This document shows positions 14,303-30,616 of a stretch of 64,000 nucleotides of DNA, piece after piece. Each line of letters opens with the position of its first letter. The first letter of the stretch is position 1. The notes below the pieces were generated by a model that worked only from the letters and a program-made list of their open reading frames with translations, was not told the origin of the DNA and did not search any database. Source of the DNA: an uncultured Ruficoccus sp. (GTDB lineage Bacteria > Verrucomicrobiota > Verrucomicrobiia > Opitutales > Cerasicoccaceae); assembly GCA_965140785.1 (NCBI GenBank), contig OZ223481.1, forward strand, positions 128,001-192,000. The letters run 5' to 3'. The position numbers were made by a program, and so were the translations under genes.

Positions 14303-15283
14303 ATGGACAAGTCCCAGCCTATCCTCGTCACCGGCGCCGCCGGATTCATCGGCAGCAAAACCGCCGAACTCCTGCTTGAAGCCGGACACACCGTCGTTGG
14401 CATCGACAATCTCAATGACTACTATGATGTGCGCGTCAAGCAGCACCGGCTCGACCAACTCAAGGGGCGGGAAGGCTTTACCTTTGAGCCGACCGATATC
14501 GAGGACCTGCCCGCCCTGGAGAAACTCTTTGCAGTACACCGCTTCGTCGCCGTCATCAACCTGGCAGCCCGCGCCGGGGTTCGGTACAGCATGGAGAACC
14601 CGCACGTCTACATGACGACCAACGCCCACGGCACCCTCAACCTGCTGGAGTGCATGAAGGACCACGGGGTGAAAAAATTCGTCCTGGCCTCGACCTCCTC
14701 ACTCTACGCGGGCCAGCCCATGCCCTTTGTCGAGACGCTACCGGTCAATACGCCGATCTCCCCCTACGCCGCCTCTAAAAAAGCCGCCGAAACCATGGCC
14801 TACACCTACCATCACCTCTATGGTATCGACGTGACCGTGCTTCGCTATTTCACGGTCTTCGGTCCGGCGGGCCGCCCGGACATGTCCATCCTGCGCTTTA
14901 TCAAGTGGATCGACGAAGGCACCCCGATCGAGCTTTTTGGTGACGGCTCCCAAAGCCGCGACTTCACCTACGTGGACGATATCGCCCGCGGCACCATCGC
15001 CGCGCTCAAGCCCCTCGGCTACGAGATTATTAACCTCGGCGGCGGCAACAACCCCATCTCGATCAACGCCATGATCGAATGTTTCGAGCAGCACCTGGGC
15101 AAAAAAGCCACCATCGACCACAAGCCCTTCCACAAGGCCGACATGAAGGAAACCTGGGCCAATATCGACAAAGCCAAATCCCTCCTCGGCTGGACCCCCA
15201 AAATCGACCCCTTCGAAGGCTTCCGCCGCAGCGTCGAGTGGCACCGTGAGAACCGCGAGTGGGTAAGCGATATTCAGCTATGA
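14303..15283 (+). CDS. NAD-dependent epimerase (UDP-glucuronate 4-epimerase-like)
   Basis: VTGAAGFIG, IDNLNDYYD, LAARAGVRYS, YAASKKA, GPAGRPDM and RDFTYVDD. Confidence 0.9.
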   Translation: MDKSQPILVTGAAGFIGSKTAELLLEAGHTVVGIDNLNDYYDVRVKQHRLDQLKGREGFTFEPTDIEDLPALEKLFAVHRFVAVINLAARAGVRYSMENPHVYMTTNAHGTLNLLECMKDHGVKKFVLASTSSLYAGQPMPFVETLPVNTPISPYAASKKAAETMAYTYHHLYGIDVTVLRYFTVFGPAGRPDMSILRFIKWIDEGTPIELFGDGSQSRDFTYVDDIARGTIAALKPLGYEIINLGGGNNPISINAMIECFEQHLGKKATIDHKPFHKADMKETWANIDKAKSLLGWTPKIDPFEGFRRSVEWHRENREWVSDIQL

Positions 15284-16086
15284 GTGAGCGAAGCAACATT
15301 TTCAGTCTGCCGAAGCGGGCTCTGAATCGCCTGACACGCGATAGCCAACTTCTATTCGCACGACTTGAACATAAAATCCGGCCTGAAAAGGCTTGCCACA
15401 TTGCCATCTGTGGCTTTCCCCGCGCCGGCACCTCCGTGCTCTTCAACATGCTCGCCTCGACCATGAAGGGTTTCAATAACCTGGGCCGGGAGACTGGCGC
15501 ACTTGCTGTGTTGAACCGTAGGGGTAACTGGATCACCAAGCAGCCCAACGATATATTTCATATCGGCAAAATCGCGGCCCAAAATTTCAGGGCTAAGAAA
15601 GTTCTGGTCATCGCCCTGTACCGGGATCCTAGCGACTCCATTACCTCCGTACACAGACTGCTGCCCGACGATTACTACATGGGCTACGATAAGAGAGGAT
15701 TCGACCAGTGCGGACTGGGGGAAATCTACAATGCCTACAAAAAGGCGATCGACCATCCCCCCGCCGGAGTCGACTTCCTCACTTTCTCTTACGAAGAACT
15801 CTGTGGAGCCCCGTCACGCCTGCAGGCGGAAATAACCCGTCGACTACAGGCCGAGTTCAGCGCCGACATGAAGGATTTCTATAAGTCTGGCGGTCAGATG
15901 GCCTATAAGTCCGGCGAAAGAGCCGAAAAGATCGCCGCCGGTCCCCTCGTCAAAGAACGACTCGGGAAATGGAAAAAGCCCGAGCGCATCCGCTCTCAGT
16001 TCACCCAGTTCCCCGAACTCTTCGCCATGGTAGAGGAGCTGGGCTACGAAAAAGACAGGGACTGGTTCGACACCTACCGTACCTGA
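15280..16086 (+). CDS. Sulfotransferase-family protein
   Basis: CGFPRAGTS (5'-PAPS-binding loop), YRDPSDSITS (3'-PB motif), SYEEL and GKWK; ATGA-coupled to the epimerase. Confidence 0.75.
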   Translation: MSERSNIFSLPKRALNRLTRDSQLLFARLEHKIRPEKACHIAICGFPRAGTSVLFNMLASTMKGFNNLGRETGALAVLNRRGNWITKQPNDIFHIGKIAAQNFRAKKVLVIALYRDPSDSITSVHRLLPDDYYMGYDKRGFDQCGLGEIYNAYKKAIDHPPAGVDFLTFSYEELCGAPSRLQAEITRRLQAEFSADMKDFYKSGGQMAYKSGERAEKIAAGPLVKERLGKWKKPERIRSQFTQFPELFAMVEELGYEKDRDWFDTYRT

Positions 16087-16123
16087 TCCTCTCCAGTATT
16101 TTTCGCCTAAAACTATACGACGT

Positions 16124-16525
16124 ATGTTACTTAAAAAAAATTCCCGCCGACTCAAGCGGTTGCTCTTCCCCCGGAAACGTAACGGTGAAGGCCCTCCCGC
16201 CTCCTACCGATCCGTCCAACTGACAACTGAAGGCATTAACGCCGGTGATTATAAAAAGTATCTCGGCGGGGGAGCCGGGCAGTGGGATCAGCGCGGGCAA
16301 TTTCAGTTGGACCTGCTGCGCTCCATAGGTCTCACCCCCACCTCGAAGCTGGCAGACATCGGCTGCGGGCCGCTGCGCGCCGGCCGTTTCTTCATCGAAT
16401 ACCTGGAAGCGGACGGTTACTTCGGCTTCGACTACAACGTCAGCTTCATTGAGGCAGGCAGGGCGATCATCGACGAGCAGGGACTGGTTAACAAGCGGCC
16501 AACCCGCTGCCCATCCTCCTTTTGA
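16124..16525 (+). pseudogene. Truncated class I SAM-dependent methyltransferase
   Basis: LADIGCGPLRAG (motif I) and YFGFDYN (motif II), then a stop after 133 aa with no room for the remaining fold before murA. Confidence 0.6.
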
Positions 16526-16567
16526 AAAAGAACAGCTGAGGCAGCGACACCTAAAAATCTCCGCACC

Positions 16568-17866
16568 ATGAAAAACAAAATCGATCTCTCTGTCATAGGC
16601 GGGCAAGTGCCCTCAGGGGCTGTACCAGTCAGTGGAGCCAAAAATGCGGCAACCCGTCTCATGGCGGCAGGGCTTTTGACCAATGAGCCCGTTATCCTGT
16701 CGAATTTTCCCACCGAGTTGGTAGACGTCGCCCAGAAGGCCCGTTTCATGCGCGCCATCGGCGCCGAATTGGACTTCGACCGCCAGCGCAGTGTACTCAC
16801 CGTCAACGCCCGGGGGACGCAGGACGCTCCCCCCGCAGACTTCGACTTTCCCATCCGTACCACGTACCTTCTGCCTGTCGGTCAATTGGTCCGCTATGGC
16901 CATGCACATATTCCTTACCCCGGTGGATGCAAGCTGGGTGAGCGTAAATACGACCTGCATCTGGAAGTGTGGCGCCAGCTCGGCTGCGATGTCGTCGAGC
17001 GTGAAGATCACATTGAAATAACCGCACGCTCGGGCTCACTGGTCGGCAACGAAATCAACTTCCCCATTACAACGGTCGGGGGCACCGAGAATGCCTTGCT
17101 GTGCGGAGCTGTGGCCCAGGGGACCACAGTCGTCCACAACGCCTATGTGACCCCGGAAGTTTATAACCTGATCGAGCTCCTGCGGCTGATGGGAGCCCAG
17201 ATCCAAATTCAGGGCAGCAGCATGATCACCATCGAAGGTGCCGGTGGGTGCCTGCACGGAGCGACCATTGACGTGATCCCCGACCGCATCGAAGCCCTCA
17301 CCTGGATTATCTACGCCGCCCTGTCCAAAGGCGATATCCTGATCGAGAATGTCCCCTTCGACCTGATGGAAATTCCCCTTCAGCACTTGCGGGCCGCAGG
17401 GCTCGATTACTTCAGCAACAGCCGTTCCGTTTACATCTCCCCGAACTGCTTCAGCACGCACTTCGTGCAGCCGTTCGAGCTGGCTTGCGGCACCCACCCG
17501 GGCATCATTTCGGACATGCAGCCGTTCTACGTGCTGCTGGCCATGTTTGGCGCCGGTAAGAGCCTGATCGTGGACTATCGCTACCCCAAGCGGGTCGCTT
17601 TCCTCGACGAGTTGCTCAAGTTCGCCCCGGGCTCGCTGGAGTGGAAGAGTGAAGATGCCGCCATGATCCGCGTCAACGGACCCGTCCCACTGCGCGGTGC
17701 ACAGGTCAAGTCCACCGACCTGCGCGGCAGCATGACGCTCGTCATGGCCGGACTTCTGGCCCAGGGCAAGAGCATCATCCACGACGTCGGGATGGCCCTG
17801 CGTGGCTACAATCTGATGGAACAGAAGCTCCGATCCCTCGGCATCGAATTCGAGATCTCGGAATAA
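16568..17866 (+). CDS. murA: UDP-GlcNAc 1-carboxyvinyltransferase homologue (MurA-like) within the polysaccharide cluster
   Basis: SGAKNA, PGGCKLGER (Cys115/Arg120 equivalents), TVGGTEN, PEV, IPDRIEA, SDMQ and TDLRG. Confidence 0.9.
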   Translation: MKNKIDLSVIGGQVPSGAVPVSGAKNAATRLMAAGLLTNEPVILSNFPTELVDVAQKARFMRAIGAELDFDRQRSVLTVNARGTQDAPPADFDFPIRTTYLLPVGQLVRYGHAHIPYPGGCKLGERKYDLHLEVWRQLGCDVVEREDHIEITARSGSLVGNEINFPITTVGGTENALLCGAVAQGTTVVHNAYVTPEVYNLIELLRLMGAQIQIQGSSMITIEGAGGCLHGATIDVIPDRIEALTWIIYAALSKGDILIENVPFDLMEIPLQHLRAAGLDYFSNSRSVYISPNCFSTHFVQPFELACGTHPGIISDMQPFYVLLAMFGAGKSLIVDYRYPKRVAFLDELLKFAPGSLEWKSEDAAMIRVNGPVPLRGAQVKSTDLRGSMTLVMAGLLAQGKSIIHDVGMALRGYNLMEQKLRSLGIEFEISE

Positions 17867-17876
17867 AAACGCGTCC

Positions 17877-18806
17877 ATGCTCGTTCTCCAACAGCAGTTT
17901 CCGAATGCGGTACGGTTTGACGAACCGCTTGCCCCCTACTCCTGGTGGCGTATCGGAGGCAAGGCCGACGCCCTGATCGAGATTCAAAGCGAGGAGCAAC
18001 TGGCCCATGTGCTCAAGAGCCTCCAATCACACAAGCTCGCCTGGTGCCTCATTGGACGAGGCACCAACCTGCTTTTTGACGATGCGGGCTTCCGGGGTTG
18101 CGTGCTGCGGCTGGGCAATGGTTTATCCGACATGAGCTTCGAGGACGACCGACTCACCGCCCAGGCCGGCTGCTGGACGCCCGGCGTGGCCTTGACCTGC
18201 GCCCGCCGCGGGCTTTCCGGAATCGAGCACACCATCGGCATTCCCGCCTCCTTCGGGGGTCTGATCTGCATGAATGGCGGCAGCCAGCGCAAAGGAATCG
18301 GCGACATCACCGAAAGCGTGACCACCCTTGATCCGGAGGGAAACCGCCACACCTACAGCCGAGAGGACTGCGCGTTTTCATACCGTCACAGCCGTTTTCA
18401 AGACAGCGGCGAGATCGTCGTCAGCGCAACCCTCCGGTTCCCAGCCCATCGCCCCTACACGGAACAACGTCCGGAACTGCTCTCCATCCTGCGCGAGCGC
18501 AATCGCAAATTCCCCCGCAAACTCCCAAGCTGCGGCTCGGTTTTCAAGAGCTCCCCGGAACTTTTTTCCGCCTACGGCCCTCCCGGAAAAATCATTGAGG
18601 ACATGGGCTTTAAGGGGAAAACCTGTGGAAACATACAAGTCTCTCCCCGCCATGCCAATTTCATCGTCAACAAGGGCGGCGGCTCTTCCGCTGACGTCCT
18701 GGCACTGGTCAATGAAATCCGTGCAAGCGTCAGGGACAAAACCGGGCTGACCATGCACCCGGAATTCCGCTACGTCCACCCGACGCACGGCATCATCGAA
18801 ATCTGA
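17877..18806 (+). CDS. murB: UDP-N-acetylenolpyruvoylglucosamine reductase homologue (MurB-like)
   Basis: WRIGGKAD, IGRGTNLL, GIPASFGG...MNGG, FSYRHSRF, SCGSVFK and HANFIVN. Confidence 0.92.
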   Translation: MLVLQQQFPNAVRFDEPLAPYSWWRIGGKADALIEIQSEEQLAHVLKSLQSHKLAWCLIGRGTNLLFDDAGFRGCVLRLGNGLSDMSFEDDRLTAQAGCWTPGVALTCARRGLSGIEHTIGIPASFGGLICMNGGSQRKGIGDITESVTTLDPEGNRHTYSREDCAFSYRHSRFQDSGEIVVSATLRFPAHRPYTEQRPELLSILRERNRKFPRKLPSCGSVFKSSPELFSAYGPPGKIIEDMGFKGKTCGNIQVSPRHANFIVNKGGGSSADVLALVNEIRASVRDKTGLTMHPEFRYVHPTHGIIEI

Positions 18807-18810
18807 TCGC

Positions 18811-20250
18811 ATGAAACGTCTGATTCACAGACTTTGGCACTCGCCGACCTTTACCTCATGGTCCAACCGGGCCGCGCAATCGGTTCGCCTGATCGTGCTG
18901 CTGCCCCTCATCCTGAAGGATTTCGACGACACTCAGGTGGCCTGCTGGTTTCTATTCAGCTCCATTCTCTTTTTCGGGCAAGTCATCAGCCAGCAAACCG
19001 CCCTGACGATGGCCCGCATGACAGCAATGGCCAACGGCGGCCTGAGTGACCTCTCCCCACACACCGGGAAAGCCCGCGACACAACCGGCCAGCCCAATTG
19101 GCCCCTGATCGAGCGCCTCTACGGCACACTGCAATCCCTCAATGCTATTCTCGCTGTCACCGGCCTGCTGCTGGCTATTGCCATGGGATATTATTCGCTT
19201 GAGCCCATGCTTAGCGATTACTCGGGAGCGAGCGACATCTGGTGCGCCTTCGCGATCCTCATGGGCGGGTATTTCATCAACGAGCTTTTTCGCAAGTTCG
19301 AAGTTACCCTCAAAGGGCTAAACCAGGTCGCCCTCACCAATCGCTGGAACGCCCTCTTCTCCGTACTCTCCTCGTGCAGTGGTGCTCTCGTCCTGCTGGC
19401 GGGCGGCTCCATCGTCGAGCTCGCCATCGCCATGCAGGCATTCATCCTGTTGAGTATCCTGCGCCAATGGGGGCTGCTCATGTTTCTGGTCCAGCCACGC
19501 TTCCGCGCCTTTAAAGTCTGGGCCTGGCATCAAGAAATTGTCAAATGGGCGTGGACTCCTTTATGGCGCGGCACGGTCCAGGCCCTGGCCAACCGCGGCG
19601 GCGCCCGGGTCGGAGCCGTTGTCCTCGCCCGCCATTGCGAGCCGGTCACCCTGGCCAGCATCCTTCTGGCCATACGCATCCTCGATGCGCTCGAAGACGT
19701 CAGCACCACCCCCATCGCCAGCCATTCACCGCGCTTTGGCCGGCTGTTGGGGGAAGGCAAAATCGACAAATTCCGCAAAGGCATGGATCGGGCGTTTCGC
19801 CTGTCATGCTCTGTCCATGTCACTGGGGTGGTCATGGTCGGATTTCTGGGCGGAATCGGGCTGCGGCTCCTTGGCTCCGATACAAAGTTCATCCCCATGA
19901 CCCTGTTCTTCAGCCTGGCAATCGCCCAGACACTCTTTTCCGTCGTTCGCAAGAGCCTGATGATATCAATGGTCGGCAACAACGTCGTCGTAGTCGAACG
20001 CTACTTGGCAGCTGCTCTGGCCAGTATCCTCCTCGCCTTCTGGCTCATCCCGCTGGACCCCTTCTGGGGCCTTCTTGCCAGCAGCTACCTCCCCGCCATC
20101 GTCATTGTAAACATCAAACCCCTCCAAATCGGCTGCCAGACGCTTCAGGAGCCCATATCGTTGTTCGTCAGGCGCACGATACTTGCCCCCCTGAGCGTGC
20201 TGCTGCTAGCCTCCGGGCTGGCGCTGGTGCTGAGTTATACGCGCCCTTGA
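18811..20250 (+). CDS. Polysaccharide flippase (Wzx/MATE-like)
   Basis: 479 aa with about 12 hydrophobic segments; located in a glycosyltransferase cluster. Confidence 0.72.
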   Translation: MKRLIHRLWHSPTFTSWSNRAAQSVRLIVLLPLILKDFDDTQVACWFLFSSILFFGQVISQQTALTMARMTAMANGGLSDLSPHTGKARDTTGQPNWPLIERLYGTLQSLNAILAVTGLLLAIAMGYYSLEPMLSDYSGASDIWCAFAILMGGYFINELFRKFEVTLKGLNQVALTNRWNALFSVLSSCSGALVLLAGGSIVELAIAMQAFILLSILRQWGLLMFLVQPRFRAFKVWAWHQEIVKWAWTPLWRGTVQALANRGGARVGAVVLARHCEPVTLASILLAIRILDALEDVSTTPIASHSPRFGRLLGEGKIDKFRKGMDRAFRLSCSVHVTGVVMVGFLGGIGLRLLGSDTKFIPMTLFFSLAIAQTLFSVVRKSLMISMVGNNVVVVERYLAAALASILLAFWLIPLDPFWGLLASSYLPAIVIVNIKPLQIGCQTLQEPISLFVRRTILAPLSVLLLASGLALVLSYTRP

Positions 20251-20270
20251 GTACAACCCGAATCGATTCC

Positions 20271-21440
20271 ATGAAAATCCTGTACCTGATCAGCTGCCTG
20301 CGAGGAATGAACTCCGGCGTCGGCGGACATAACTACTCGCTCATTACTATCGCAACGGCAATGGCCCGTTCGAACACAGTGAAAGTCGTACTCAACCACG
20401 ACATGGAATGCCCCGCCTTCAACACCTACCAGGGAACGCTCCTACACATCAGCCACCAGAGCCTGCGCGACGACATCAAGTCCCTGGTCGCGATCATCAG
20501 AGAAGAAAAACCGGACGCACTGCATTCCTTTGACCGAATATCCCATTGCATAGCAAAGGCAGCCAGTGCCCAAACCCAAACCCCGCTTGTCATCACCAAG
20601 CCCGGAGACATTCTCCCTCGCTATACCTATCCTCACGCCTACGACGTGACCGTGTTTACCCAGGCAGATGTCGATTTCTTCAAAAACCACCCATACTTCC
20701 GAAACGCACGCATTTCGAATATTCCAAACCGAACGACAAAACCGATCGTGAACGAAAAGCGTCTTTTAGCCCTCCAACCGTATGTCAAAGAGGGAGCGTT
20801 CAAGATCATGTTCATTTCGACCTTCAACAATAGAAAATTCAATACACACACAAAGTGTATTGAATTGATCAAACGCTTGAACCTGGAGGGTTTCAAAGCC
20901 CAAGGCATTTTTATCGGTAACATTAACGAACAAAGCGTCTATGATAAACTGCTCGCCAGCGCCGGAGAAAACTGCACCCTGCTTACCTCTGAGGAGTTCT
21001 TTGATAACGCTTCGGAATTTCTGGCCGGTGCGGATGCTGCGGTCACGATGGGGCGAAGCACTCAAGAGGCAGCCGCCTATGGAAAACCCATTTTATGCTG
21101 TGCCCATAACCTCGACATCCCATATCTCCTTAACGATTCGAATTTCGAGCACACAGCCTCTCATAACTTTACAAACCGTACTACCGTCGACATGAGCGGA
21201 TATGACGCCCTTGCCTCTATTTCTTCTCTCATTACCTCTCCGCAAGCCTACACCCAAGCCTGCGAATTCTCCAAACGCCAATTCGCCAAGTACTGGGATG
21301 TTGAAATGGCAGTTCCGAAATACTGTAATCTTTACGCTTCAGCACGCCCCGCGTGCAACCTCCCTCTGGAAAAATACCTACAGGCAACAGTTAAGCTACT
21401 TTACGATAAAGGGCGTAAGCTCTTCTCTAAATCTAGCTGA
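20271..21440 (+). CDS. GT-B fold glycosyltransferase
   Basis: MKILYLI...GVGGH N-terminus, KPDALHS and ADAAVTMGRSTQEAAAYGKP; AT-rich. The longer track ORF from 19545 is a spurious extension over wzx. Confidence 0.78.
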   Translation: MKILYLISCLRGMNSGVGGHNYSLITIATAMARSNTVKVVLNHDMECPAFNTYQGTLLHISHQSLRDDIKSLVAIIREEKPDALHSFDRISHCIAKAASAQTQTPLVITKPGDILPRYTYPHAYDVTVFTQADVDFFKNHPYFRNARISNIPNRTTKPIVNEKRLLALQPYVKEGAFKIMFISTFNNRKFNTHTKCIELIKRLNLEGFKAQGIFIGNINEQSVYDKLLASAGENCTLLTSEEFFDNASEFLAGADAAVTMGRSTQEAAAYGKPILCCAHNLDIPYLLNDSNFEHTASHNFTNRTTVDMSGYDALASISSLITSPQAYTQACEFSKRQFAKYWDVEMAVPKYCNLYASARPACNLPLEKYLQATVKLLYDKGRKLFSKSS

Positions 21441-21481
21441 CACAAACACATTCCTTCTCACTCCTTTCACCAAATACATCT

Positions 21482-22084
21482 ATGGCCAGCACTAATCTCA
21501 GGGAATCCATCAGAGCAGATTTGCTGCGCTACCGCAAAAACACCGGCTGGAAGGCTTTCGGGTATGCCTACATCGTCTACCCCGGCTTTCGTGTCACATT
21601 CTGGTATCGGCTTGTCCATTATTGCCATCGCTCTCCGAAATGGCGGATATTCTCCAAAATCGGCACACTCTGGCTACTGCACCAACAGCACCGCACTGGG
21701 ATAGAGCTCAGCCATCAAACAGAGATAGGCCCGGGCGTCTATATCCCCCATGCTGGAGCAATTGTGATTAACGGGAAGTGTAAGATCGGCAGCAATCTCT
21801 ACCTCTCCCACGATGTGCTGCTTGGCAAAGCCCATGCCGGCCCCCGGCAAGGGGTGCCCACCGTCGGGGATGACGTTTATCTTGGGCCGGGTGCACGGCT
21901 ACTGGGTAAACTCCATGTGGGAGACAATGCCGCCATCGGGGCAAATGCAGTCGTTTTAAACGACATTCCTTCCGACAGCTTCGCCGTGGGCGCTCCGGCC
22001 AAAGTCGTTAAAAATACCGGAGCCCGGGGGTTACTCGGAATCGCAGAAGAACAGGCCACAGTCCAAACACCGACCAAGGGCTAA
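21482..22084 (+). CDS. Hexapeptide-repeat O-acetyltransferase (CysE/WcaB-like)
   Basis: IGPGVYIPH, PTVGDDVYLGPGARLLG, IGANAVV and VGAPAK. Confidence 0.88.
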   Translation: MASTNLRESIRADLLRYRKNTGWKAFGYAYIVYPGFRVTFWYRLVHYCHRSPKWRIFSKIGTLWLLHQQHRTGIELSHQTEIGPGVYIPHAGAIVINGKCKIGSNLYLSHDVLLGKAHAGPRQGVPTVGDDVYLGPGARLLGKLHVGDNAAIGANAVVLNDIPSDSFAVGAPAKVVKNTGARGLLGIAEEQATVQTPTKG

Positions 22085-22129
22085 TTGACCCCTGCGGTCC
22101 TCATCGCAACTTCACCTTTCAGCCCATTC

Positions 22130-23506
22130 ATGAAATTAATCCCCTTTCCCTCGGAAAATAACGGAAGACTGCTACAGAAAGTGGCCTACTGGGTCCTGGT
22201 CGGCATGGCTATCGTCTCGCCATTAGGCCAGCTTACCCGATTCGGCCAATTCACGGGCGAAGGTGATGGCCAGGCCATGGGCGCTGTTACCATCCTGACC
22301 ATTTTGTACATCGGGCTTTCTATTATTAACGGCAGCATTATGGCTGCCATAAAAAAAACACCCCGCCGCCCTGCTCCTCTTCTGCTTCGCAGGATGGAGT
22401 TGCCTGGCAACCCTGGTGCAGGGGCTTCCGGTCATGTACGGGGTATACCCGGCCGCCCGCATGGTCAGTTATTATCTGGTCATGCTTGCCGTCTTCGGAA
22501 GCTTTTACTCCGAGCGTCAATTGCGATCGTCGCCCTGACGTTTTGTTTCTTCATGTCGATATGCTGTGTCATCAGTCTGGCCGACTATTTTGAATACATA
22601 AATCTAGAGCAGGTTAATGTCGTCGAGAATGCCTTCAAGACGGATGACATGAGAAACCTGAGAGTGGACAGCCTAACGGGGCCATTCTCCAGTCGGACAA
22701 TCTTCGCCAACCACATGGCCATAACCGTTACGATTGCAGTCTGGTATGTGCTGTTGAAAGGGAAGTCGATCATAGGCCTGAGTGCAGGCGTTGAGATGCT
22801 CGGCATTTTTGCGATCAGTGCCGTCATGTCCCAATCTCGAGGCCTGTATATGGCGATTCCGGTCGCTGTTTTATATATGGTGTATAAGCAGCGCAGCTTC
22901 TTGAGACTCATGCCAAAATTGCTCCTCGCTTCAGTCATATTCATAGCCGCAGCTACAGTTGTATTGTTAAATCATCCTGATTTGATGTTCGCGTTCGTGG
23001 AGCGCTTAAAAGGCCTCCTGCCATCGGAGTTCGCCTATAGCTCCTCAGGGCGATTCTCCATTTGGTCCAACCTCTTTAAGGAGCTTATGTCAAATCCGCA
23101 GGGGATTGGTTTTAAAGACGTCTATGTTGCAAACTGGGGGGTGATCGACACGCACAATGTCTATCTCAAAAACCTCAAACAGGCAGGCATCATCGGCATC
23201 GTCATGCTGACGATAGCATTCATCCCCTTGTTCAAGGTGTTATTTCGCCGAGAAATGGCTCCAACCGAGTCCGCCATCCAATCGGCTATCGTATGCTTGG
23301 GCATTTATGGACTGACGCATACCGTGGACTCCACCCTCTTTCTGTGGGTTTTCATTGGATTCGCACTGAGCCATTATTTCCGGCCGGTCAATCCCATGCA
23401 GATGCAGCCTAATCCACAGCCCCAGTTTCATCCCCACCCCCACTGGCCCGCCCCGCCCCATCGTCCACAACGGGCTCCCTTCCCCCCCACCGGACCTGCA
23501 CGGTAA
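22130..23506 (+). CDS. Wzy polymerase / O-antigen ligase family protein with a compensated frameshift segment
   Basis: Multi-TM protein; GPFSSRT, SQSRG, SSGRFSIW, GIG and THNVYLK..QAGIIG. The stretch 22359-22520 is hydrophobic only in the alternative frame. Confidence 0.75.
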   Translation: MKLIPFPSENNGRLLQKVAYWVLVGMAIVSPLGQLTRFGQFTGEGDGQAMGAVTILTILYIGLSIINGSIMAAIKKTPRRPAPLLLRRMELPGNPGAGASGHVRGIPGRPHGQLLSGHACRLRKLLLRASIAIVALTFCFFMSICCVISLADYFEYINLEQVNVVENAFKTDDMRNLRVDSLTGPFSSRTIFANHMAITVTIAVWYVLLKGKSIIGLSAGVEMLGIFAISAVMSQSRGLYMAIPVAVLYMVYKQRSFLRLMPKLLLASVIFIAAATVVLLNHPDLMFAFVERLKGLLPSEFAYSSSGRFSIWSNLFKELMSNPQGIGFKDVYVANWGVIDTHNVYLKNLKQAGIIGIVMLTIAFIPLFKVLFRREMAPTESAIQSAIVCLGIYGLTHTVDSTLFLWVFIGFALSHYFRPVNPMQMQPNPQPQFHPHPHWPAPPHRPQRAPFPPTGPAR

Positions 23507-23585
23507 AACTTCAATCATCATCCCACCCGGCTTTACGGCCCAGCCAGCTCCGGTGTGTCCCGTTTACAAACCAATATAAGCATCC

Positions 23586-24755
23586 ATGAAAAGACTGGCA
23601 AAGATTGTGGTAGTCGGTTTCGGCTCCATCGAAAAAGATAACGATGGCAACTGGCAGACGAAACAACCTATTGCCGAGTATATTAACGGCTTGGCCGAGG
23701 GAGCCGAAGAGGTCGTTTGGTTCATTAACCACAATCGGCTTAAAAACCAAAACCAACAGGCTACGATCAATTCTGACAAAATTCGCGTCAGGGCATATAA
23801 ATACAGCACCTGGAGCTGGTTCCGCATGATGCCTGGCGTGCTAAAAGAGAGCAAAGGTGCCGGTGTGATCCTGCACATGCCAACATCGACACACCTCTAT
23901 CCGTTATACAAGCTCATCAAAAGACGTTCGGTCGCGCTGGCAGTCTACATCGGGGACGACTATGAGGCGTACTGCAAAACCGGGACCGGCCTCACAGCCC
24001 TCAAGCGGCGGATGATACTGATGGCCCACCGCACATTGGTCAGTATCGCTGATCTGGTTGTGGCCAGAGGTAAGCACCTGGCATCGGTCGCGATGGAGCG
24101 CAACCGTAATGTCATTGAGACTGTGCCGCTCGCGCACATGCCGACTGAAGTCCAAACCAAGCCGCTTCCCACGGCGGGTGAACCTTTCAATATCCTCTGC
24201 GTAAGCAAGCTCGCCTGGTGCAAAGGCTTTAAAGAGTTCATCGACGCCTACGACCAGCTCGTACAGGAGGGACGGCACAAGCTTGGCAAACTGTACATCG
24301 TCGGAGACGACCTCGGAGGCAACAATATCGAGGGGGACGCCATCAGGGAATATGCCCGCACTAAAGCATGCTGTGATCACATCGTCTTTACCGGTTATTT
24401 GTACCTCGCGAGCGAACTGGAAAAGTACTGGCAGGCGTGCCCCCTGCTGGTGATGCCGACCTCCTCCCACAATGAAGGTGTCCCGCGCGTGATCGACGAA
24501 GCCCTAAGCCGCGGCCTGGGGATTGTCTCGACAACCATCGGTGGGGTGGGAGCCGAGTTCGCATCCAGCCCCGTCGTACTGGTGAAACCCGCCGATACCG
24601 GAGCGCTCCGCACCGGCATCGAACAGGTGCTCGATCACCCGGAAACGCTGGCCGACATTTCCGCCTATGCGAAAAGTCGCTTCGAGTTTTTCCAGCAGCA
24701 AGGCTCGCCCGGCAAGCAGCACTACCAAGCCCTTTCACAATGTATCAGAAAATAA
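23586..24755 (+). CDS. Glycosyltransferase family 4
   Basis: KG..EFIDA, YIVGD and EGVPRVIDEALSRGL. Confidence 0.85.
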   Translation: MKRLAKIVVVGFGSIEKDNDGNWQTKQPIAEYINGLAEGAEEVVWFINHNRLKNQNQQATINSDKIRVRAYKYSTWSWFRMMPGVLKESKGAGVILHMPTSTHLYPLYKLIKRRSVALAVYIGDDYEAYCKTGTGLTALKRRMILMAHRTLVSIADLVVARGKHLASVAMERNRNVIETVPLAHMPTEVQTKPLPTAGEPFNILCVSKLAWCKGFKEFIDAYDQLVQEGRHKLGKLYIVGDDLGGNNIEGDAIREYARTKACCDHIVFTGYLYLASELEKYWQACPLLVMPTSSHNEGVPRVIDEALSRGLGIVSTTIGGVGAEFASSPVVLVKPADTGALRTGIEQVLDHPETLADISAYAKSRFEFFQQQGSPGKQHYQALSQCIRK

Positions 24756-24863
24756 ACTTCACCTATTTACCAAGGAGGGGAGACAACCCCCAGGCCATCG
24801 ACTTCTAAACGAACTGTCGAGGCTCTATCCTGCCTCTCGCAGACCCCACGAAGCCACAATCTA

Positions 24864-25658
24864 ATGAAGACTGTCCAGAAATTGATCCAACATCCGGCAT
24901 GGACAGCCAAGAAGCTTTATCTCCATGGTCGATCCTTTTTGAACCTGAACAAAGATGACATCATACTGGCCGTTTTCCCGAAAACGGGCAGTACCTGGGT
25001 TCGGTTCTTCCTCTTCAATCTACTCTCGAGCGTCGAACAGCGCCAGGGCGAGATCAGCATCGACGAGATGAACCGTTTGATGCCCGAGATGGGGCACCCC
25101 TCCTTGTTTCGCGACTGGCCCTTTCGCTCGTGTCCACGCATCGTCAAAAACCACCATGCGGCCAATTTTATGACGCGCGGTCATCGTGTGATACTGATCC
25201 TGCGCGACCCCCGCGACGTCGTCGTGTCTTATTACCACTATGTCAATGGCGGCAAAAATGCTCCCGCTCAGGCCCAGACAATCAAGGACATCATCTACGA
25301 TCCGGAAAAAGGATTCGAAGGCTTTTTCAGGCAGTACTATTCCTGGCCGGAACAAGACCGTTTCTTACTGCGGTACGAAGACCTCAAAGCCGACCCTTTT
25401 GCCGAGTTCAGTCGCCTGGTGCATCACCTGAATATTCCGGCCAGCGAGGGGCAAATCCGGCAAGCTATCGCCAGTGCGGATTTTTCAGCCATGCGCAAAG
25501 CTCAGCAGCAAAGTAAATCCATGCGGGAGAGCTTCTCCGAGGGTTTCAATTTTGTCCGGTCCGGCGGCAGCGGTGAATGGAAAAACCTTTTCGAGGCCAA
25601 GGACATCGCCTATTGGGAGTCACTGAAAAATAAATACAATTTCAAGCTATATCCATGA
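24864..25658 (+). CDS. Sulfotransferase (Sulfotransfer_1 / cytosolic SULT-like)
   Basis: DDIILAVFPKTGSTW, RDPRDVVVSYYHY, RYEDLK and FVRSGGSGEWKN. Confidence 0.9.
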   Translation: MKTVQKLIQHPAWTAKKLYLHGRSFLNLNKDDIILAVFPKTGSTWVRFFLFNLLSSVEQRQGEISIDEMNRLMPEMGHPSLFRDWPFRSCPRIVKNHHAANFMTRGHRVILILRDPRDVVVSYYHYVNGGKNAPAQAQTIKDIIYDPEKGFEGFFRQYYSWPEQDRFLLRYEDLKADPFAEFSRLVHHLNIPASEGQIRQAIASADFSAMRKAQQQSKSMRESFSEGFNFVRSGGSGEWKNLFEAKDIAYWESLKNKYNFKLYP

Positions 25659-25754
25659 TGCCACCCCTCCTCCCCCGTCAACGACAAGGCATCGATAACC
25701 CGTGCTTCCTTTAAGGCAGACAACCATCCCACCAACCCAGTCAGCACATCAGCC

Positions 25755-26894
25755 ATGGCCAAGACGCTCATTGCCATTTATACCCGAGGAAAAGGCATCA
25801 CTGGGCAATTGGTAGCCACACGCCTATTAGTAGACGCCTTGAAGAAAGAGGGCTGGAGCGTCCACGATTATCCCCTGCCGGCTCTTGACCGCGACTCCCC
25901 CCACCCCTGGTTCGCTTACTTCATTTATTTCCTCAAGCTTCTCCTGGCTTGGATGCGTCTGCCTTATTTCCTGCTCCTCCGACCGGACTTCATTCACTTG
26001 AATGCCGGTCAGTCACTGGTCGCCCTGATACGCGACTGGGTGCCGTTCCAGTCACTGGTCCGACTGACACGAGCTCGCGGCTACATTTCCATGCACGGAA
26101 GCATCGCCATGTCATGGCGTAAACAGGACCGCTGCACCCAGCTTCTCAACCGCCTCACCAGATCGGCCGAAGCGGTCACGGTGCTGGGCACCCAACTGCA
26201 ACAGCAATTGATCCACCTTGGGGTGCCCGAAGGCAAGATCGTCATCTTGCCCAATACCTGTGACATCCCCCCTCTGAGCGAAAATAGTATCCGCGCTAAA
26301 CAAAGCGTGCCGGACACGCACCGGATTCTTTTTATCAGCAACCTCATCGACGCCAAGGGCTACCCGGAGTTTCTGGAGGGCATGGAGCTACTCGCCCGGC
26401 AGACCACCCTTCCTCTTGAGATCAACCTTTGCGGACAGCTTTACCAGACCGAATACTCTGACCGATTTAAAACGGTGAATGACGCGCGCCAATGGATAGA
26501 ACAAAAGCTGCAGACCCTCAACAGCCTGCCGCACGCCTCAGCCCGTTGGCTCGAGGGAGTCGCCGGAGAGGAGAAAGAACATCTGCTGCACGCGGCCCAT
26601 TTGTTCGTTTTTCCCAGCCGCTACCCTGTCGAGGCCCAACCCATCGTCCTGCTGGAAGCGATGGCCAGCGGAGCCGCCATCATAACAAGCTCCATTGGAG
26701 AAATCCCTGAAACGGTCGGTAAATGCGCCCTGCTCCTGCAGGAAGTATCCGGGCAGACGGTTTACCATGCAACTCGCCGTCTGCTGGAAAACGGACAAGT
26801 GCGCCTAGATTACGCGCAGCGGGGAGCCGAACTTTTCCACCAGTTGTACAGTCAGAAACAGTACAAACAAAACTGGCTGCATCTTCTGTCCTAA
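25755..26894 (+). CDS. Glycosyltransferase family 4
   Basis: FISNLIDAKG and FVFPSRYPVEAQPIVLLEAMASG. Confidence 0.9.
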   Translation: MAKTLIAIYTRGKGITGQLVATRLLVDALKKEGWSVHDYPLPALDRDSPHPWFAYFIYFLKLLLAWMRLPYFLLLRPDFIHLNAGQSLVALIRDWVPFQSLVRLTRARGYISMHGSIAMSWRKQDRCTQLLNRLTRSAEAVTVLGTQLQQQLIHLGVPEGKIVILPNTCDIPPLSENSIRAKQSVPDTHRILFISNLIDAKGYPEFLEGMELLARQTTLPLEINLCGQLYQTEYSDRFKTVNDARQWIEQKLQTLNSLPHASARWLEGVAGEEKEHLLHAAHLFVFPSRYPVEAQPIVLLEAMASGAAIITSSIGEIPETVGKCALLLQEVSGQTVYHATRRLLENGQVRLDYAQRGAELFHQLYSQKQYKQNWLHLLS

Positions 26895-27088
26895 GCGGCG
26901 TTAAAAATGAAAAATGTATCCAAATTTTAATGACTGCCAGACTTTCACCTGGAGAAATACCGGCAAGAACACTGAAACGTAACATGTGGAGCCGCTTTTA
27001 GCTTTTCAGTCATCCGCCCCCAGCTACTATCAACGCCCGAATCATTTCCTAATTGCTGTCCGAGAGGGTCAGCCCGTCAGAGATCACA

Positions 27089-28261
27089 ATGGCCTCAGAT
27101 GTAAATAGTCATAACTCATCCGGCAACACCCTACGTATCTTGCTACATGGTCATTTAGGGCAAGGCAACCTCGGCGACGAAGCCATGTTGGCCGGTGTTT
27201 ACCAACTGCTTATAAAGAATATACCCGATATTCGCGTAAGCGTCATCGCCGGGCCCCATTCCCGGCTGGATTTCCTGCCCCCGGAGACAGTTTCCGTCCT
27301 TCCACGCACGCAGCGAGAACTTATGCGTGGAATTGCCTCAACGGACATCCTCATGATTGTCGGCGGCACGCATCTGGCCTCCTTCAAAAGCGATTTTCGT
27401 CACACCAAAGCCATCCTTCGCCAAGGTATGATTTTGGCCTACGCCCGGCTGCTTGGCAAAAAAGTCTTCATGGCCGGGGTTGGCATAGGCCCCTTTGAAA
27501 CCCGCTCCGGGGAAATGATGGCCGCCTGCGTGGCTCGCCTGTGCAACGCCATCACCGTCCGGGATGAGCGCTCCCTCTCCTGGCTGGCCTCCAGGAAAGC
27601 GCTCCACGCACGGGCCAGTAAATGCGTCGATCCGGCTTTCGCGCTAAACATCCCGTCCGCCTCGAAAACGGGTGACGCCCTGGGCATTTCGCTGATGCCC
27701 TACTTCGCCAACTATCACCCCGGCAGTGGCAAGGACCGGGAAATCGTCAGCCGCATGGTTGAACTCGCCTCCGCATGGTGGAAGCAAAAGCCCGCCGCGC
27801 CCGTCGTTCTTTTTCCGTTCCTGGAACAGCGCAGCATCTACTCCGACAGCGAAGTCATCACGCCTCTTTACGAGCAGTTGGCCCCACTCGGCCCGGTCCG
27901 CATTCACGACGCCAGCCAGAGGCTGGAAGAGCGCATTCGGGGCATCGGTGCCTGCACACATTTTATTTCTTTTCGCTATCATGCCATGCTCTTCGCCTTC
28001 ATGGCGGGCGTACCGCAGTTGGCCGTCGCCTACCATGATAAAAACCGCACCCTTGCCGGCGAATCGGGGCTGCCCGCCAAGGCGGTTTTTTCCGTCGATG
28101 ATTTACTAGCGGGAAAATTATCCGGCCCGGCAGAGGATTTCTTCTCCTCCCCCACGCAATGGGCGAGCACGGTTGATCCGTCGTTTTTTCAGGATCAGGC
28201 AGAAAATATCATCACCGGGCAGATGTACCAGACGATGCGCGGAAAGGCCCAACCAAAATGA
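27089..28261 (+). CDS. Polysaccharide pyruvyltransferase (CsaB/WcaK-like)
   Basis: GHLGQGNLGDEAML, VGG, GVGIGP, ITVRDERS, DPAF, RYHA and AYHDK. Confidence 0.9.
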   Translation: MASDVNSHNSSGNTLRILLHGHLGQGNLGDEAMLAGVYQLLIKNIPDIRVSVIAGPHSRLDFLPPETVSVLPRTQRELMRGIASTDILMIVGGTHLASFKSDFRHTKAILRQGMILAYARLLGKKVFMAGVGIGPFETRSGEMMAACVARLCNAITVRDERSLSWLASRKALHARASKCVDPAFALNIPSASKTGDALGISLMPYFANYHPGSGKDREIVSRMVELASAWWKQKPAAPVVLFPFLEQRSIYSDSEVITPLYEQLAPLGPVRIHDASQRLEERIRGIGACTHFISFRYHAMLFAFMAGVPQLAVAYHDKNRTLAGESGLPAKAVFSVDDLLAGKLSGPAEDFFSSPTQWASTVDPSFFQDQAENIITGQMYQTMRGKAQPK

Positions 28262-29418
28262 AACTTCTCCACGTCATCCATGACAACCGTATCAGCGGAG
28301 TCGCCATGCGGGCCCTGACCGTAGCACCGCAGTTGCGGGCACAGGGCATCGAACCGATCTTCGTCGTGCCGGACGAGGCCGGCTCTGTCGATGAGAAGTG
28401 CCGCGAACTGGGGCTGCCAGTGCACCGTGCCTACATGCCACGTCCGACATTGAAGGCCCGTCACCTGCTGCGGGTGTTGGTGTGGCTGGTCGGGCTGCCC
28501 CGTACCGCGCTACAGTTGCGTCGCCTCATTCACCGCGAGCGTGCGGACTGCCTCCATGTCAACGGTCTGGTCAACGTCGGCCCCTGGCTGGCCGCCTGGC
28601 TCACCCGCAAGCCCATCGTCTGGCACCTGTGCGGGACCGACTACCCAAAGGCCCTGGTGCGGATATTGATTCCGCTCATCCGCCGCCGCAGCGAGATCAT
28701 TTACATTTCTCCCCAGGTCGGAAATTACTTCCTGGGAACAGGTGGCCGAAACTCTAACGAACACCTGCTCTTTGAGCCGGTGGACCTGGCGGTACTGGAG
28801 CGGCGAATGCGTCAGTCCGCCCCAGAAAGCCTGCGCGAGATTATTGGCGACAATGACAACGCCCCGGTCTGCCTCACCGTCGGCAACCTTTCACCCCGCA
28901 AGGGAGCCCACTACCTGATCGAGGCCATCGCGCTCATGAAGGATGCGGGACTGCGAATGAAGCTCGCCGTGGTGGGCGAGTCCCTGAGCGTCCATCTGGA
29001 CTACGAGCGCCAATTGCACCAGCGTATTCAGGAGCTCGGATTGACCGAACAGGTGTTTTTCCTCGGCCGACGGGACGATGTTCCTGCGCTCATGCAGCAA
29101 GCCGATGTCTTTGCCCTCGCCTCGAACTCGGAGGGCACTCCGCTGGTCATCATGGAGGCAATGGCCTTGTATCTTCCCGTTGTCGCCACCGCCGTCGGGG
29201 GCGTCCCAGATATGATTACTGACAATGAAAATGGTCTTCTGGTGGACAAGGGGAGTCCGACCCAGCTTCAGGCTGCGCTGAGTCGTCTGGTACAAGAATC
29301 CGGCTTGCGCGAACGCCTGACCCAAAAGGCCCGGCGCACCACAGAGGAGAAGTTCTCGCTCTCCACCCATGTCAAAGGCTTTGCAGCCATCATAAAAAGG
29401 GCAGCGACCGAAACCTGA
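28258..29418 (+). CDS. Glycosyltransferase family 4
   Basis: VGNLSPRKG, LGRRDDV and EGTPLVIMEAMA. Confidence 0.92.
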   Translation: MKLLHVIHDNRISGVAMRALTVAPQLRAQGIEPIFVVPDEAGSVDEKCRELGLPVHRAYMPRPTLKARHLLRVLVWLVGLPRTALQLRRLIHRERADCLHVNGLVNVGPWLAAWLTRKPIVWHLCGTDYPKALVRILIPLIRRRSEIIYISPQVGNYFLGTGGRNSNEHLLFEPVDLAVLERRMRQSAPESLREIIGDNDNAPVCLTVGNLSPRKGAHYLIEAIALMKDAGLRMKLAVVGESLSVHLDYERQLHQRIQELGLTEQVFFLGRRDDVPALMQQADVFALASNSEGTPLVIMEAMALYLPVVATAVGGVPDMITDNENGLLVDKGSPTQLQAALSRLVQESGLRERLTQKARRTTEEKFSLSTHVKGFAAIIKRAATET

Positions 29419-29479
29419 AAAGATACCGTTAGCACGGCCTGCACGCTTAAGCCATGAGTAGTGGCTACCCGTAACCGCC

Positions 29480-30616
29480 CTACAATTCCTCGAACAGGCC
29501 GACCCAGCGCCGCATCAACGGGGCACTGGAGTACTTCTCCCTTCCGCATGCCTGGGCGCGTTGCTGGCAGGCACGAAGTTCCTCGGGATGTGTCAAGATG
29601 TGCTCCAGGGTTGTGCGCAGGCCGTCCACATCACCCGGTTCGACGAGCCAGCCGCATTTTTCGGTTTCTACAATTCGGGCCAGATCGCTGCCCTTGGGGG
29701 CCACGGCCAGCACGGCCTGCCCAGCCACCAGGGCACTGTAAGTCCGCCCTGGCATGAGAATGTGCTCGGCCCCATGGCCGACGTTGATCAGCGCGATGTC
29801 GGCGCGGCGCATGGCGTCCGTCCACTGCTCGTTGTTGAGGTAGCCGCCGAGCGTGACCCACTCCGGGGGCGGGCCCACCGCCTGGCGCAGGTCGGCGTAA
29901 CCCTTGCCGCTGGCGTGGATATTTAAAAGACAACGCGAAGCAATGATCTCCCCTGGCTCTTTAATCAGCCCGATAAAGCTGGAGGGGTCGTGCATATAAC
30001 CCATGTTGCCGCAGTAGAGGATTTCTATTCTTTTCTCGGCCGAAGACTCCTCCGTGCGATCCGGAAAAGGTACTTCGCTCGCTCCCACATCGATGATGAC
30101 CGGGTGGGCCACCTCAGGGTTCTTTGCCATGACGTAATCCTGAAGCGTCTGGCCGAGGAAGACGTTCGCGTCGCTCTTTCGCAGGGTCCAGCCTTGCAGC
30201 CGGTCGAGCACCCGTGTGAAGAAGCTGTCTTTCCTCAGCATACCGGCATGCACCAGAGACTCGGGGAAGAGGTCGTAAACCAGATGCACGATCCGGTGCC
30301 GGCGGCCCCGCAGGAGAATCGCCAGCGCGGGCACGTAGAACGTATTGGTCGAGAAAACCATGATGCACGGCTCGCGGTCAAAAAGCATCCGTGCCGCCAC
30401 GTACAGGGGATAGACCACGTACATTTTCAGGCGCAACCACAGGTGAGCGAGACGACCGCCGCCCTTGAGGCGCCCGTATTCGAGATTGGACATGAGGTAA
30501 CGCTGCCGGGCTTCCCACCCTTCGGCATTCATCAGCTCAAGAATGCGTGGCGTACAGCCGACGAATTGACAATTCGTCCAGAACTCAACGCGGGGCGGTG
30601 CAGTTTTCTTTCTCAT
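29480..30616 (-). CDS. Glycosyltransferase family 4 (WcaI-like)
   Basis: HLVYDLFPE, YCGNMGYMH and MPGRTYSAL. Confidence 0.85.
   Translation of the reverse strand: MRKKTAPPRVEFWTNCQFVGCTPRILELMNAEGWEARQRYLMSNLEYGRLKGGGRLAHLWLRLKMYVVYPLYVAARMLFDREPCIMVFSTNTFYVPALAILLRGRRHRIVHLVYDLFPESLVHAGMLRKDSFFTRVLDRLQGWTLRKSDANVFLGQTLQDYVMAKNPEVAHPVIIDVGASEVPFPDRTEESSAEKRIEILYCGNMGYMHDPSSFIGLIKEPGEIIASRCLLNIHASGKGYADLRQAVGPPPEWVTLGGYLNNEQWTDAMRRADIALINVGHGAEHILMPGRTYSALVAGQAVLAVAPKGSDLARIVETEKCGWLVEPGDVDGLRTTLEHILTHPEELRACQQRAQACGREKYSSAPLMRRWVGLFEEL

Follow-up and report, generated by a model that had tools for sequence, protein, structure and literature searches.

A Hypervariable Wzx/Wzy-Type Surface-Polysaccharide Locus in a Verrucomicrobium with Candidate Genes for Sulfation, Pyruvylation, Acetylation, and Lactyl-Ether Formation

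Introduction

Wzx/Wzy-dependent O-antigen clusters of Enterobacteria contain nucleotide-sugar genes, several glycosyltransferases (GTs), wzx, wzy, and modification genes, as outlined in PMC7685785. In this work, we describe a locus at positions 14303-30616 of a 64,000-nucleotide stretch of DNA (the window) from an uncultured Ruficoccus sp. of the Verrucomicrobiota (GenBank assembly GCA_965140785.1, contig OZ223481.1, positions 128,001 to 192,000). We read it, with a probability of about 0.7, as the serotype-variable part of a lipopolysaccharide (LPS) O-antigen-type, Wzx/Wzy-dependent surface-polysaccharide locus. It is an uncharacterized locus built from known enzyme classes, in which predicted anionic decorations are densely combined, and it includes accessory homologues of the peptidoglycan enzymes MurA and MurB (MurA2 and MurB2). 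It shares with the enterobacterial clusters the gene logic, hypervariability between conserved flanks, a low GC content, and a separately encoded ligase (here a WaaL-like candidate). Unlike them, it belongs to another phylum, carries two sulfotransferases, and combines four kinds of predicted anionic groups.

Sulfate and pyruvate ketal also occur together in marine Cobetia, whose O- and capsular polysaccharides are sulfated and partly pyruvylated (1-carboxyethylidene) according to PMC11766843; a sulfated and pyruvylated structure of Cobetia pacifica is cited in PMC6801904. In the former source, the sulfotransferase and 3'-phosphoadenosine 5'-phosphosulfate (PAPS) genes are tied to the cluster, and the capsular polysaccharide depends on a Kps ABC transporter, whereas the present locus is of the Wzx/Wzy type, with the genome's PAPS genes on a different contig. 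The word 'MurA' has 0 occurrences in the text of PMC11766843.

Lactyl (1-carboxyethyl) ethers, in turn, are described in several papers: in the E. coli O-antigens O58, O69, O124, O146, and O150 (PMC7685785); as 3-O-(1-carboxyethyl)-glucuronic acid in an Alteromonas exopolysaccharide (EPS; PMC2901825); and in Odoribacter, Cyanospira, Mycobacterium, Salinivibrio, and Nostoc, with nosturonic acid and 4-O-lactyl-mannose also named (PMC12679510). A preprint on the glucolactilic acid of Campylobacter N-glycans links it to a pyruvyl-transferase gene that is likened to MurA (bioRxiv 10.64898/2026.05.23.727390). Such sugars represent the chemistry predicted for MurA2/MurB2; the passages on them assign no MurA/MurB paralogue to the ether, and their connection with the present genes is by inference. 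The literature searches made returned no paper that assigns MurA/MurB paralogues to glycan lactyl ethers; a Yersinia ruckeri match was only aroA in a table, and a Klebsiella oxytoca paper and a side-chain review offered nothing on genes.

Colanic acid of E. coli is encoded by a cluster that includes the WcaB acetyltransferase and the WcaK pyruvyltransferase. The locus resembles it in specifying a predicted Wzx/Wzy polymer with O-acetyl, pyruvate ketal, and uronic acid, and NCBIfam returned weak matches of the acetyltransferase to WcaB, the pyruvyltransferase to WcaK, GT4d to WcaL, and GT4e to WcaI, all far under the equivalog cut-offs. However, the sulfotransferases and MurA/MurB present here are absent from the colanic acid cluster. 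Bacterial glycosaminoglycan pathways (heparosan, chondroitin, hyaluronan) employ a processive or bifunctional synthase that makes a uronate-hexosamine disaccharide repeat without Wzy, whereas the polymer-building genes found here are five GT4 genes, one small GT2, and Wzy. An earlier note on this stretch, made from the sequence alone, had called the polymer glycosaminoglycan-like. The term holds loosely, for an acidic, sulfated, and uronate-containing product, but not for the mode of assembly; because of the five GT4 genes and Wzy, a complex repeat unit rather than a disaccharide is expected. A true glycosaminoglycan pathway was rejected, as no processive or bifunctional synthase was found and Wzy is present.

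Organization of the Locus

The gene calls at 14303-30616, obtained from the list of open reading frames (ORFs) together with Pfam and NCBIfam, match the inventory of the earlier note at its coordinates: an epimerase, two sulfotransferases, a pyruvyltransferase, an acetyltransferase, MurA/MurB, a flippase, a polymerase, and five GTs were all borne out. Pfam (E<=0.001) assigned a family to 13 of the 15 ORFs submitted, the exceptions being orf133 and Wzx. Thirteen genes run head-to-tail on the + strand from 14303 to 29418, with intergenic gaps of -25 to 158 nt, which is an operon-like spacing; the fifth GT4 gene, GT4e, is convergent on the - strand.

14303-15283 (+): UDP-glucuronate 4-epimerase-like short-chain dehydrogenase/reductase, last gene of the conserved left flank (Pfam, NCBIfam, solved relatives)
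15259-16086 (+): Sulfotransfer_3-like ST3, with which the variable part opens (32.1 bits, cut-off 27)
16124-16525 (+): orf133, truncated class-I methyltransferase, N-terminal 133 aa only (alignment to Cerasicoccus)
16568-17866 (+): MurA2, predicted accessory UDP-sugar enolpyruvyl transferase (Pfam, NCBIfam, tree)
17877-18806 (+): MurB2, predicted accessory enolpyruvyl-UDP-sugar reductase, type II MurB-like (Pfam, NCBIfam)
18811-20250 (+): Wzx flippase (weak match to the O-unit flippase-like model NF041503, 93 bits, below the cut-off of 300)
20271-21440 (+): GT4a, divergent GT-B glycosyltransferase (ORF clustering)
21482-22084 (+): hexapeptide-repeat O-acetyltransferase, EpsC/CysE/WcaB-like (Pfam, NCBIfam)
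22085-23506 (+): Wzy polymerase, locus-specific (Wzy_C 38.7 bits, cut-off 31.7)
23586-24755 (+): GT4b (Pfam)
24864-25658 (+): ST1, Sulfotransfer_1 (103 bits)
25755-26894 (+): GT4c (Pfam)
27053-28261 (+): ketal pyruvyltransferase, PS_pyruv_trans PF04230, CsaB/WcaK-like (96.2 bits, cut-off 25.3)
28258-29418 (+): GT4d (Pfam)
29480-30616 (-): GT4e, weakly WcaI-like (Pfam, NCBIfam)

The epimerase ORF opens at 14222, and 14303 is an in-frame ATG; for GT4a, the start was set at 20271, as a longer frame of 631 aa would overlap wzx. The best solved relatives of the epimerase are 5u4q (261 bits), deposited under the title of a dTDP-glucose dehydratase, and 6zl6/6zla (187 bits). The latter are presumably the UDP-glucuronate 4-epimerase of Bacillus cereus, and we take 5u4q to be a UDP-glucuronic acid (UDP-GlcA) 4-epimerase as well. 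No NCBIfam equivalog model matched the epimerase.

The two sulfotransferases are of different kinds. In ST1, the stretches PKTGSTW, KNH, and RDPRDVVVSYY align to a mouse cytosolic sulfotransferase (SULT) over its PAPS-binding loops (5'-phosphosulfate loop and 3'-phosphate motif) and its catalytic His. Its family is small, with 76 proteins at E<=1e-10 in a large protein search, the best being 54% identical; the source names of its relatives include Akkermansiaceae, Rubrivirga, and Salinibacter. In ST3, the motifs PRAGTS and YRDPSD were spotted by eye, and it is 35% identical to the sulfotransferase that occupies the same position in Cerasicoccus. The neighboring orf133 aligns with a 237-aa methyltransferase of Cerasicoccus maritimus, again at the same position, over residues 5-130 of the latter (61% identity) and then ends; it has no Pfam match. 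Because the alignment to the full-length enzyme breaks off at residue 130, orf133 is, by its sequence, a methyltransferase remnant, in agreement with the earlier note.

A crude hydropathy scan gave 11 hydrophobic segments for Wzx and 7 for Wzy. Wzx is 80% and 45% identical to the gene that follows MurB2 in the same-genus genomes (congeners) G002 and G004, respectively, while no Wzy homologue occurs in the loci of the four congeners (G001-G004) or in Cerasicoccus.

The MurA2/MurB2 Pair

The MurA/MurB copies in the locus are extra, because a full-scoring MurA and a MurB exist elsewhere in the genome (G000): MurA on contig C12 (537 bits, vs 332.5 for MurA2) and MurB on C48, about 7 kb from a MraY-type match. 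The housekeeping MurB match (G000:C48:280157-280981) lies inside a 762-aa open frame and may be fused to a neighboring cell-wall gene.

MurA2 and MurB2 resemble MurA (EC 2.5.1.7) and MurB (EC 1.3.1.98) in fold, family, the catalytic Cys/Lys/Arg/Asp set, and the equivalog score of MurB2. The latter contains PF01565 (FAD_binding_4) and PF02873 (MurB_C) and passes the MurB equivalogs NF010480 (272.6 vs 259) and TIGR00179 (171.7 vs 144.5), and MurA2 passes the MurA subfamily model NF006873 (338 vs 297). Unlike the housekeeping MurA, to which it is 31% identical, MurA2 scores below the MurA equivalog and belongs to a separate, horizontally spread clade found in polysaccharide clusters. It is 54-70% identical to 119 proteins among the matches listed, whose source names include Verrucomicrobiota, cyanobacteria, Planctomycetota, Alteromonadaceae, and Dongiaceae.

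The MurA2 residues K25, N26, R97, C121, R126, H131, D316, R342, D384, R386, and R412 do not vary across 28 members of the clade, and all except C121 are also among the columns shared with six housekeeping MurA; the catalytic-loop Cys is retained in MurA2. We take these positions to be the PEP (phosphoenolpyruvate)/UDP site and the Cys/Lys/Arg/Asp set of the MurA active site. No substrate could be identified from the clade-specific residue differences between MurA2 and housekeeping MurA.

In a quick maximum-likelihood tree of 6 housekeeping MurA, 36 MurA2, and one divergent row from G002, the housekeeping MurA were split from the MurA2-side rows at an SH-aLRT of 100, and the branching within the MurA2 clade was at odds with the organism phylogeny. 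All five further genomes examined encode both a full-scoring MurA, at 437-608 bits, and a MurA2 that stays under the equivalog cut-off, at 311-335 bits. The divergent row is a third MurA-like gene of G002 (L098:2622-3887), which sits on a long branch outside the MurA2 clade and precedes a small hexapeptide acetyltransferase and a MurB2/Wzx pair.

The best 80 of 107 confirmed MurA2 loci in species genomes from many phyla were surveyed. A MurB-like gene lies within 10 kb (<=10 kb) of MurA2 in 71 of the 80, immediately downstream on the same strand in 55 of these 71, and several of the nine loci that lack it end at contig ends. Ugd-like genes were found in 26/80 loci and epimerase-like genes in 28/80, whereas none of the 80 contains a counterpart of ST1, the pyruvyltransferase, the acetyltransferase, Wzy, GT4b, or GT4e. 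When eight loci were chosen for phylogenetic spread and 104 of their 123 long ORFs were scanned, all eight, from eight lineages, proved to be polysaccharide clusters with GT2/GT4, Wzx, Wza/Wzc, or phosphoglycosyl transferases. The MurA2/MurB2 pair is therefore not a local invention but a widespread mobile cassette, spread over many phyla. The carriers of the clade include Alteromonas, Vibrio, cyanobacteria, Mycobacterium, and Bacteroidota, lineages from which lactyl-ether sugars have been reported. A distant blastn search of E. coli genomes with the MurA2-MurB2 DNA of Vibrio furnissii, an insensitive test, gave no match.

When the ORFs lying up to 6 kb from MurA2 were clustered across 81 loci, two recurrent GT families emerged, a GT2 family in 44 loci and a GT4a-containing family in 16, either of which is present in 57/81. 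The members of the GT4a type that could be placed relative to MurA2 (n=14) all lie 0.85-2.8 kb downstream (e.g., L012:13510-14763), a place that the GT2 family occupies elsewhere, and the window GT4a is only 23-27% identical to its 16-locus family. Because this family recurs downstream of MurA2, GT4a appears to be the best candidate for the transferase of the modified (lactyl) sugar. A UDP-uronate is a possible substrate of MurA2, since ugd and a 4-epimerase accompany it, both at this locus and at roughly a quarter to a third of those surveyed. On a broader scale, MurA2/MurB2 with the following GT might, as a unit that moves horizontally, be the general determinant of lactyl (1-carboxyethyl) ether sugars in bacterial surface glycans, possibly formed on a UDP-sugar other than UDP-GlcNAc, and contribute here to an O-antigen with four acidic functions (uronate, sulfate, pyruvate ketal, and lactyl ether); we advance this extension tentatively and consider it rather doubtful.

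Genomic Context and Attachment to LPS

Upstream of the locus, the genes are arranged in the order kdsD, kdsA, the gene for a protein with Wzy_C, the gmhA-like and hldE-like genes, ugd, the GT2 gene, and a short ORF with helix-turn-helix matches. These and the other features of the window outside the locus are as follows.

1-309 (-): small Bac_transf phosphoglycosyl transferase, 3' part of a 217-aa frame running off the window start (PF02397, 204 bits)
3425-5845 (-): 806-aa DUF4838 protein of the LPS region, flanked by a GT4 gene and kdsD
5885-7641 (-): kdsD (SIS+CBS) and kdsA (DAHP_synth_1), synthesis of 3-deoxy-D-manno-octulosonic acid (domain matches)
7649-9220 (-): WaaL-like O-antigen ligase (Wzy_C 48.9 bits; 11 hydrophobic segments)
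9261-10830 (-): gmhA-like (SIS_2) and hldE/rfaE-like kinase (PfkB), heptose pathway (domain matches)
11029-12741 (-): UDP-glucose 6-dehydrogenase Ugd (three UDPG_MGDP_dh domains)
12553-12691 (+): MITE-like (miniature inverted-repeat transposable element) repeat copy, left of the conserved GT2 (repeat search)
12885-13718 (+): GT2 glycosyltransferase, also at the G001 left flank
13800-14276 (+): small conserved ORF with weak MarR/sigma70_r4 helix-turn-helix matches (domain scan)
30756-30923 (+): second MITE-like repeat copy, at the right junction of the variable region (repeat search)
30961-31731 (-): AraC-family regulator, conserved right flank (domain match, congener comparison)
44552-48847 (-): GH18 chitinase, 1431 aa, three CBM2 modules and a weak CBM49 match (domain scan)

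Ugd, the source of UDP-GlcA, lies just upstream of the epimerase on the opposite strand; its true start is probably near 12396, as the domain begins only at residue 116 of the maximal ORF. The phosphoglycosyl transferase match straddles the window start (G000:C10:127785-128309, - strand, PF02397), outside 14303-30616, and is a candidate initiating enzyme; a WecA-like PF00953 match lies about 4 kb further upstream. The 13800-14276 ORF, which is 39% identical to its Cerasicoccus counterpart and stands directly upstream of the epimerase there and in the congeners, may be a regulator of the locus. On the other side, kdsB was found in the domain scan further downstream of the AraC-family regulator.

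A comparable neighborhood exists in Cerasicoccus, where gmhA, hldE, the epimerase, kdsA, kdsD, a WaaL-like gene, a sulfotransferase, and a methyltransferase precede the MurA2 block, which continues with MurA2, MurB2, Wzx, GT4, a sulfotransferase, Wzy, and further GT4s. The WaaL-like protein is conserved (45% identity in G004 and 29% in Cerasicoccus), whereas Wzy is locus-specific, which fits the roles of a ligase and a serotype-specific polymerase, respectively. Since LPS core genes and this conserved WaaL-like ligase adjoin the locus, the product would more likely be an O-antigen than a free EPS.

Variability and Horizontal Exchange

All four same-genus genomes retain the left flank through the whole of the epimerase at 74-84% DNA identity (81-84% around the 13800-14276 ORF in G001-G003), and three of them retain the AraC right flank at 70-80%. 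Between these flanks, in the variable region of about 15263-30959, the DNA matches are few: MurB2 and wzx in G002 (75% identity), MurA2 and MurB2 in G004 (68%), a short piece of GT4e in G001, and none in G003. A Pfam scan of 53 of the 62 long ORFs of the four loci likewise revealed different contents. The G001 locus has no MurA2 and no sulfotransferase, that of G003 has a Sulfotransfer_2 and gmd, that of G002 has the divergent third MurA-like gene and several hexapeptide acetyltransferases, and that of G004 has an AT3-SGNH acyltransferase and a TupA-like ATP-grasp protein, together with a methyltransferase that is full-length and stands ahead of MurA2. A locus with the same gene set was found neither among the 80 MurA2 loci nor in the four congeners, and the homology searches made returned no characterized counterpart, in line with the earlier note, which had inferred an undescribed polymer.

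The 1-kb windows from 20001 to 27000 have a GC content of 0.51-0.56, whereas the flanks are mostly at 0.60-0.65. This 7-kb stretch has a GC of 0.532, compared with 0.590 for the genome, and is exceeded in GC by 91% of the 4061 windows of 7 kb taken from the genome; the GC at third codon positions (GC3) is 0.585-0.677 for the genes from GT4a to the pyruvyltransferase vs 0.73-0.89 in flank genes. The AT-richness stated in the earlier note, for which it had proposed a GC and codon-usage check, is thus real but moderate. Conserved flanks with differing contents, the low GC3, and the patchy phyletic spread of MurA2 together identify, at the sequence level, a hypervariable serotype locus reshuffled by horizontal exchange, as the earlier suggestion of horizontal assembly had anticipated.

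The MITE-like repeat, with one window copy close to each edge of the variable locus, is ~140-165 bp long with terminal inverted repeats of ~21 bp, and is present in at least 25 copies in the genome as well as in G001, G004, and G007. It looks like a MITE because its subfamilies keep their ends complementary; an Rfam scan of the window left it unmatched.

Proposed Pathway

Gene content, motifs, context, and comparative distribution are observed here, and from these we infer each chemical step, the MurA2 substrate, and the attachment to LPS. Ugd and the 4-epimerase would supply UDP-GlcA and UDP-galacturonic acid (UDP-GalA). MurA2 would move enolpyruvate from PEP to a hydroxyl group of a UDP-sugar, either UDP-GlcNAc or another, possibly a uronate, and MurB2 would reduce the enolpyruvyl group to the lactyl (1-carboxyethyl) ether. 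The nearby phosphoglycosyl transferase would start the repeat unit on undecaprenyl phosphate, after which GT4a-e, and perhaps the GT2, would extend it, GT4a being the likeliest to add the lactyl sugar. At the cytoplasmic face, the unit would receive sulfate from PAPS through ST3 and ST1, O-acetyl through the hexapeptide enzyme, and a pyruvate ketal through the PS_pyruv_trans enzyme. The unit would then be flipped by Wzx, polymerized by Wzy, and joined to lipid A-core by the WaaL-like ligase, and the expected product is a strongly polyanionic heteropolysaccharide. For the sulfation, pyruvylation, acetylation, and lactyl ether forecast in the earlier note, candidate enzymes and a predicted uronate supply are present in an intact-looking Wzx/Wzy cluster, which keeps the forecast in place as a prediction.

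Alternative Explanations

Several observations weigh against the O-antigen-type reading and the chemistry predicted with it. Several scores fall under the curated NCBIfam equivalog cut-offs: MurA2 with TIGR01072 (332.9 vs 392.7 bits), the pyruvyltransferase, although above its Pfam cut-off, with CsaB (110.7 vs 213.1), Wzx with NF041503 (93 < 300), and the acetyltransferase with EpsC (129 < 150). The Pfam score of ST3 is marginal (32.1 bits vs 27), and a structure-sequence search returned no solved-structure relative for it. Substrate specificities would not be readable from enzyme families such as these. No Wzz/PCP (polysaccharide co-polymerase) gene occurs within the window, and only two weak Wzz matches (28 bits) were found elsewhere in the genome. 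The truncated methyltransferase points to some decay of the cluster. The supply of PAPS, whose genes the earlier note had proposed to look for elsewhere, belongs here as well, for the search succeeded only in part: cysC (220 bits) and cysD (153 bits) lie together, intact, on contig C26, followed by cysN, but cysN is split in the assembly into two frames at a G5 run near 44.78 kb (G000:C26 about 44159-45434), and no Sat-type ATP sulfurylase was found in the 91%-complete genome. The cysC-cysD-cysN stretch was found in two public DNA-type runs of one study, X1 and X2. An X1 contig has one base fewer at the G5 run, which restores the frame, and X2 does not bridge the site; the restoration thus comes from a single contig of low depth (4.5x). 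The frameshift is probably an assembly error, although X1 is possibly the genome's own source, and its support is weak for this reason.

The locus might instead encode a capsule or free exopolysaccharide not linked to LPS, the LPS core neighbors being coincidental. Decoration with pyruvate ketal, acetyl, and sulfate typifies EPS such as colanic acid, to whose WcaB, WcaK, WcaL, and WcaI several products are weakly matched; the MurA2 cassette stands beside Wza/Wzc export genes in other lineages (e.g., L077, L032, and L036); and the lack of Wzz in the window would also suit such a product. However, the window ORFs that were scanned include neither Wza nor Wzc, the locus is enclosed by kdsA/kdsD/WaaL-like/gmhA/hldE on one side and kdsB on the other, and the WaaL-like gene lies directly beside the variable genes in Cerasicoccus and G004 as well, which renders this explanation unlikely, if a genuine competitor.

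Less probable still is a cluster that is partly decayed or silent, in which case the polymer would bear fewer substituents and would lack sulfate if PAPS synthesis were broken. The truncated methyltransferase and the frameshifted cysN are compatible with this, as is the fact that no expression data turned up in a search covering only the cysC-cysD-cysN stretch, which was matched by DNA-type runs only; against it, all other locus genes are full-length with intact motifs, and one independent contig is without the extra G in cysN.

The least probable alternative, to which we give very little weight, concerns MurA2 and MurB2 alone. Gram-positives have MurA1 and MurA2 as redundant peptidoglycan enzymes, and the present pair could similarly produce UDP-MurNAc and leave the polysaccharide unmodified, as the MurB equivalog and NF006873 scores and the catalytic and UDP-contacting residues common to MurA2 and housekeeping MurA would allow. 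A full-scoring MurA, as well as a MurB near the MraY-type match, is nevertheless encoded elsewhere in the genome; MurA2 forms a separate clade whose tree is at odds with the organism phylogeny; it lies in the variable part and is absent from G001 and G003; and it is surrounded by GT, Wzx, and phosphoglycosyl transferase genes in 8/8 sampled loci and followed by a specific GT family in 57/81. A peptidoglycan role of the pair was rejected given the housekeeping copies, the separate clade, and the polysaccharide-cluster context.

Implications

The serotype-variable O-antigen-type locus described here changes no principle, being a cluster of known enzyme classes. Its interest lies in the dense combination of predicted anionic decorations and in the putative lactyl-ether cassette. 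Bacteria seldom carry sulfated surface polysaccharides, and the genetics of those that are known is thinly documented; lactyl-ether sugars are reported from many bacteria, yet the literature searches made returned no paper that assigns them to genes. Here, candidates for each of sulfation, ketal pyruvylation, acetylation, and the formation of lactyl ethers come together in one apparent operon of ~15 kb. As the congeners provide natural 'swap' controls, the locus is a compact test bed for assigning these activities, and it may serve as a source of enzymes for making polyanionic glycans.

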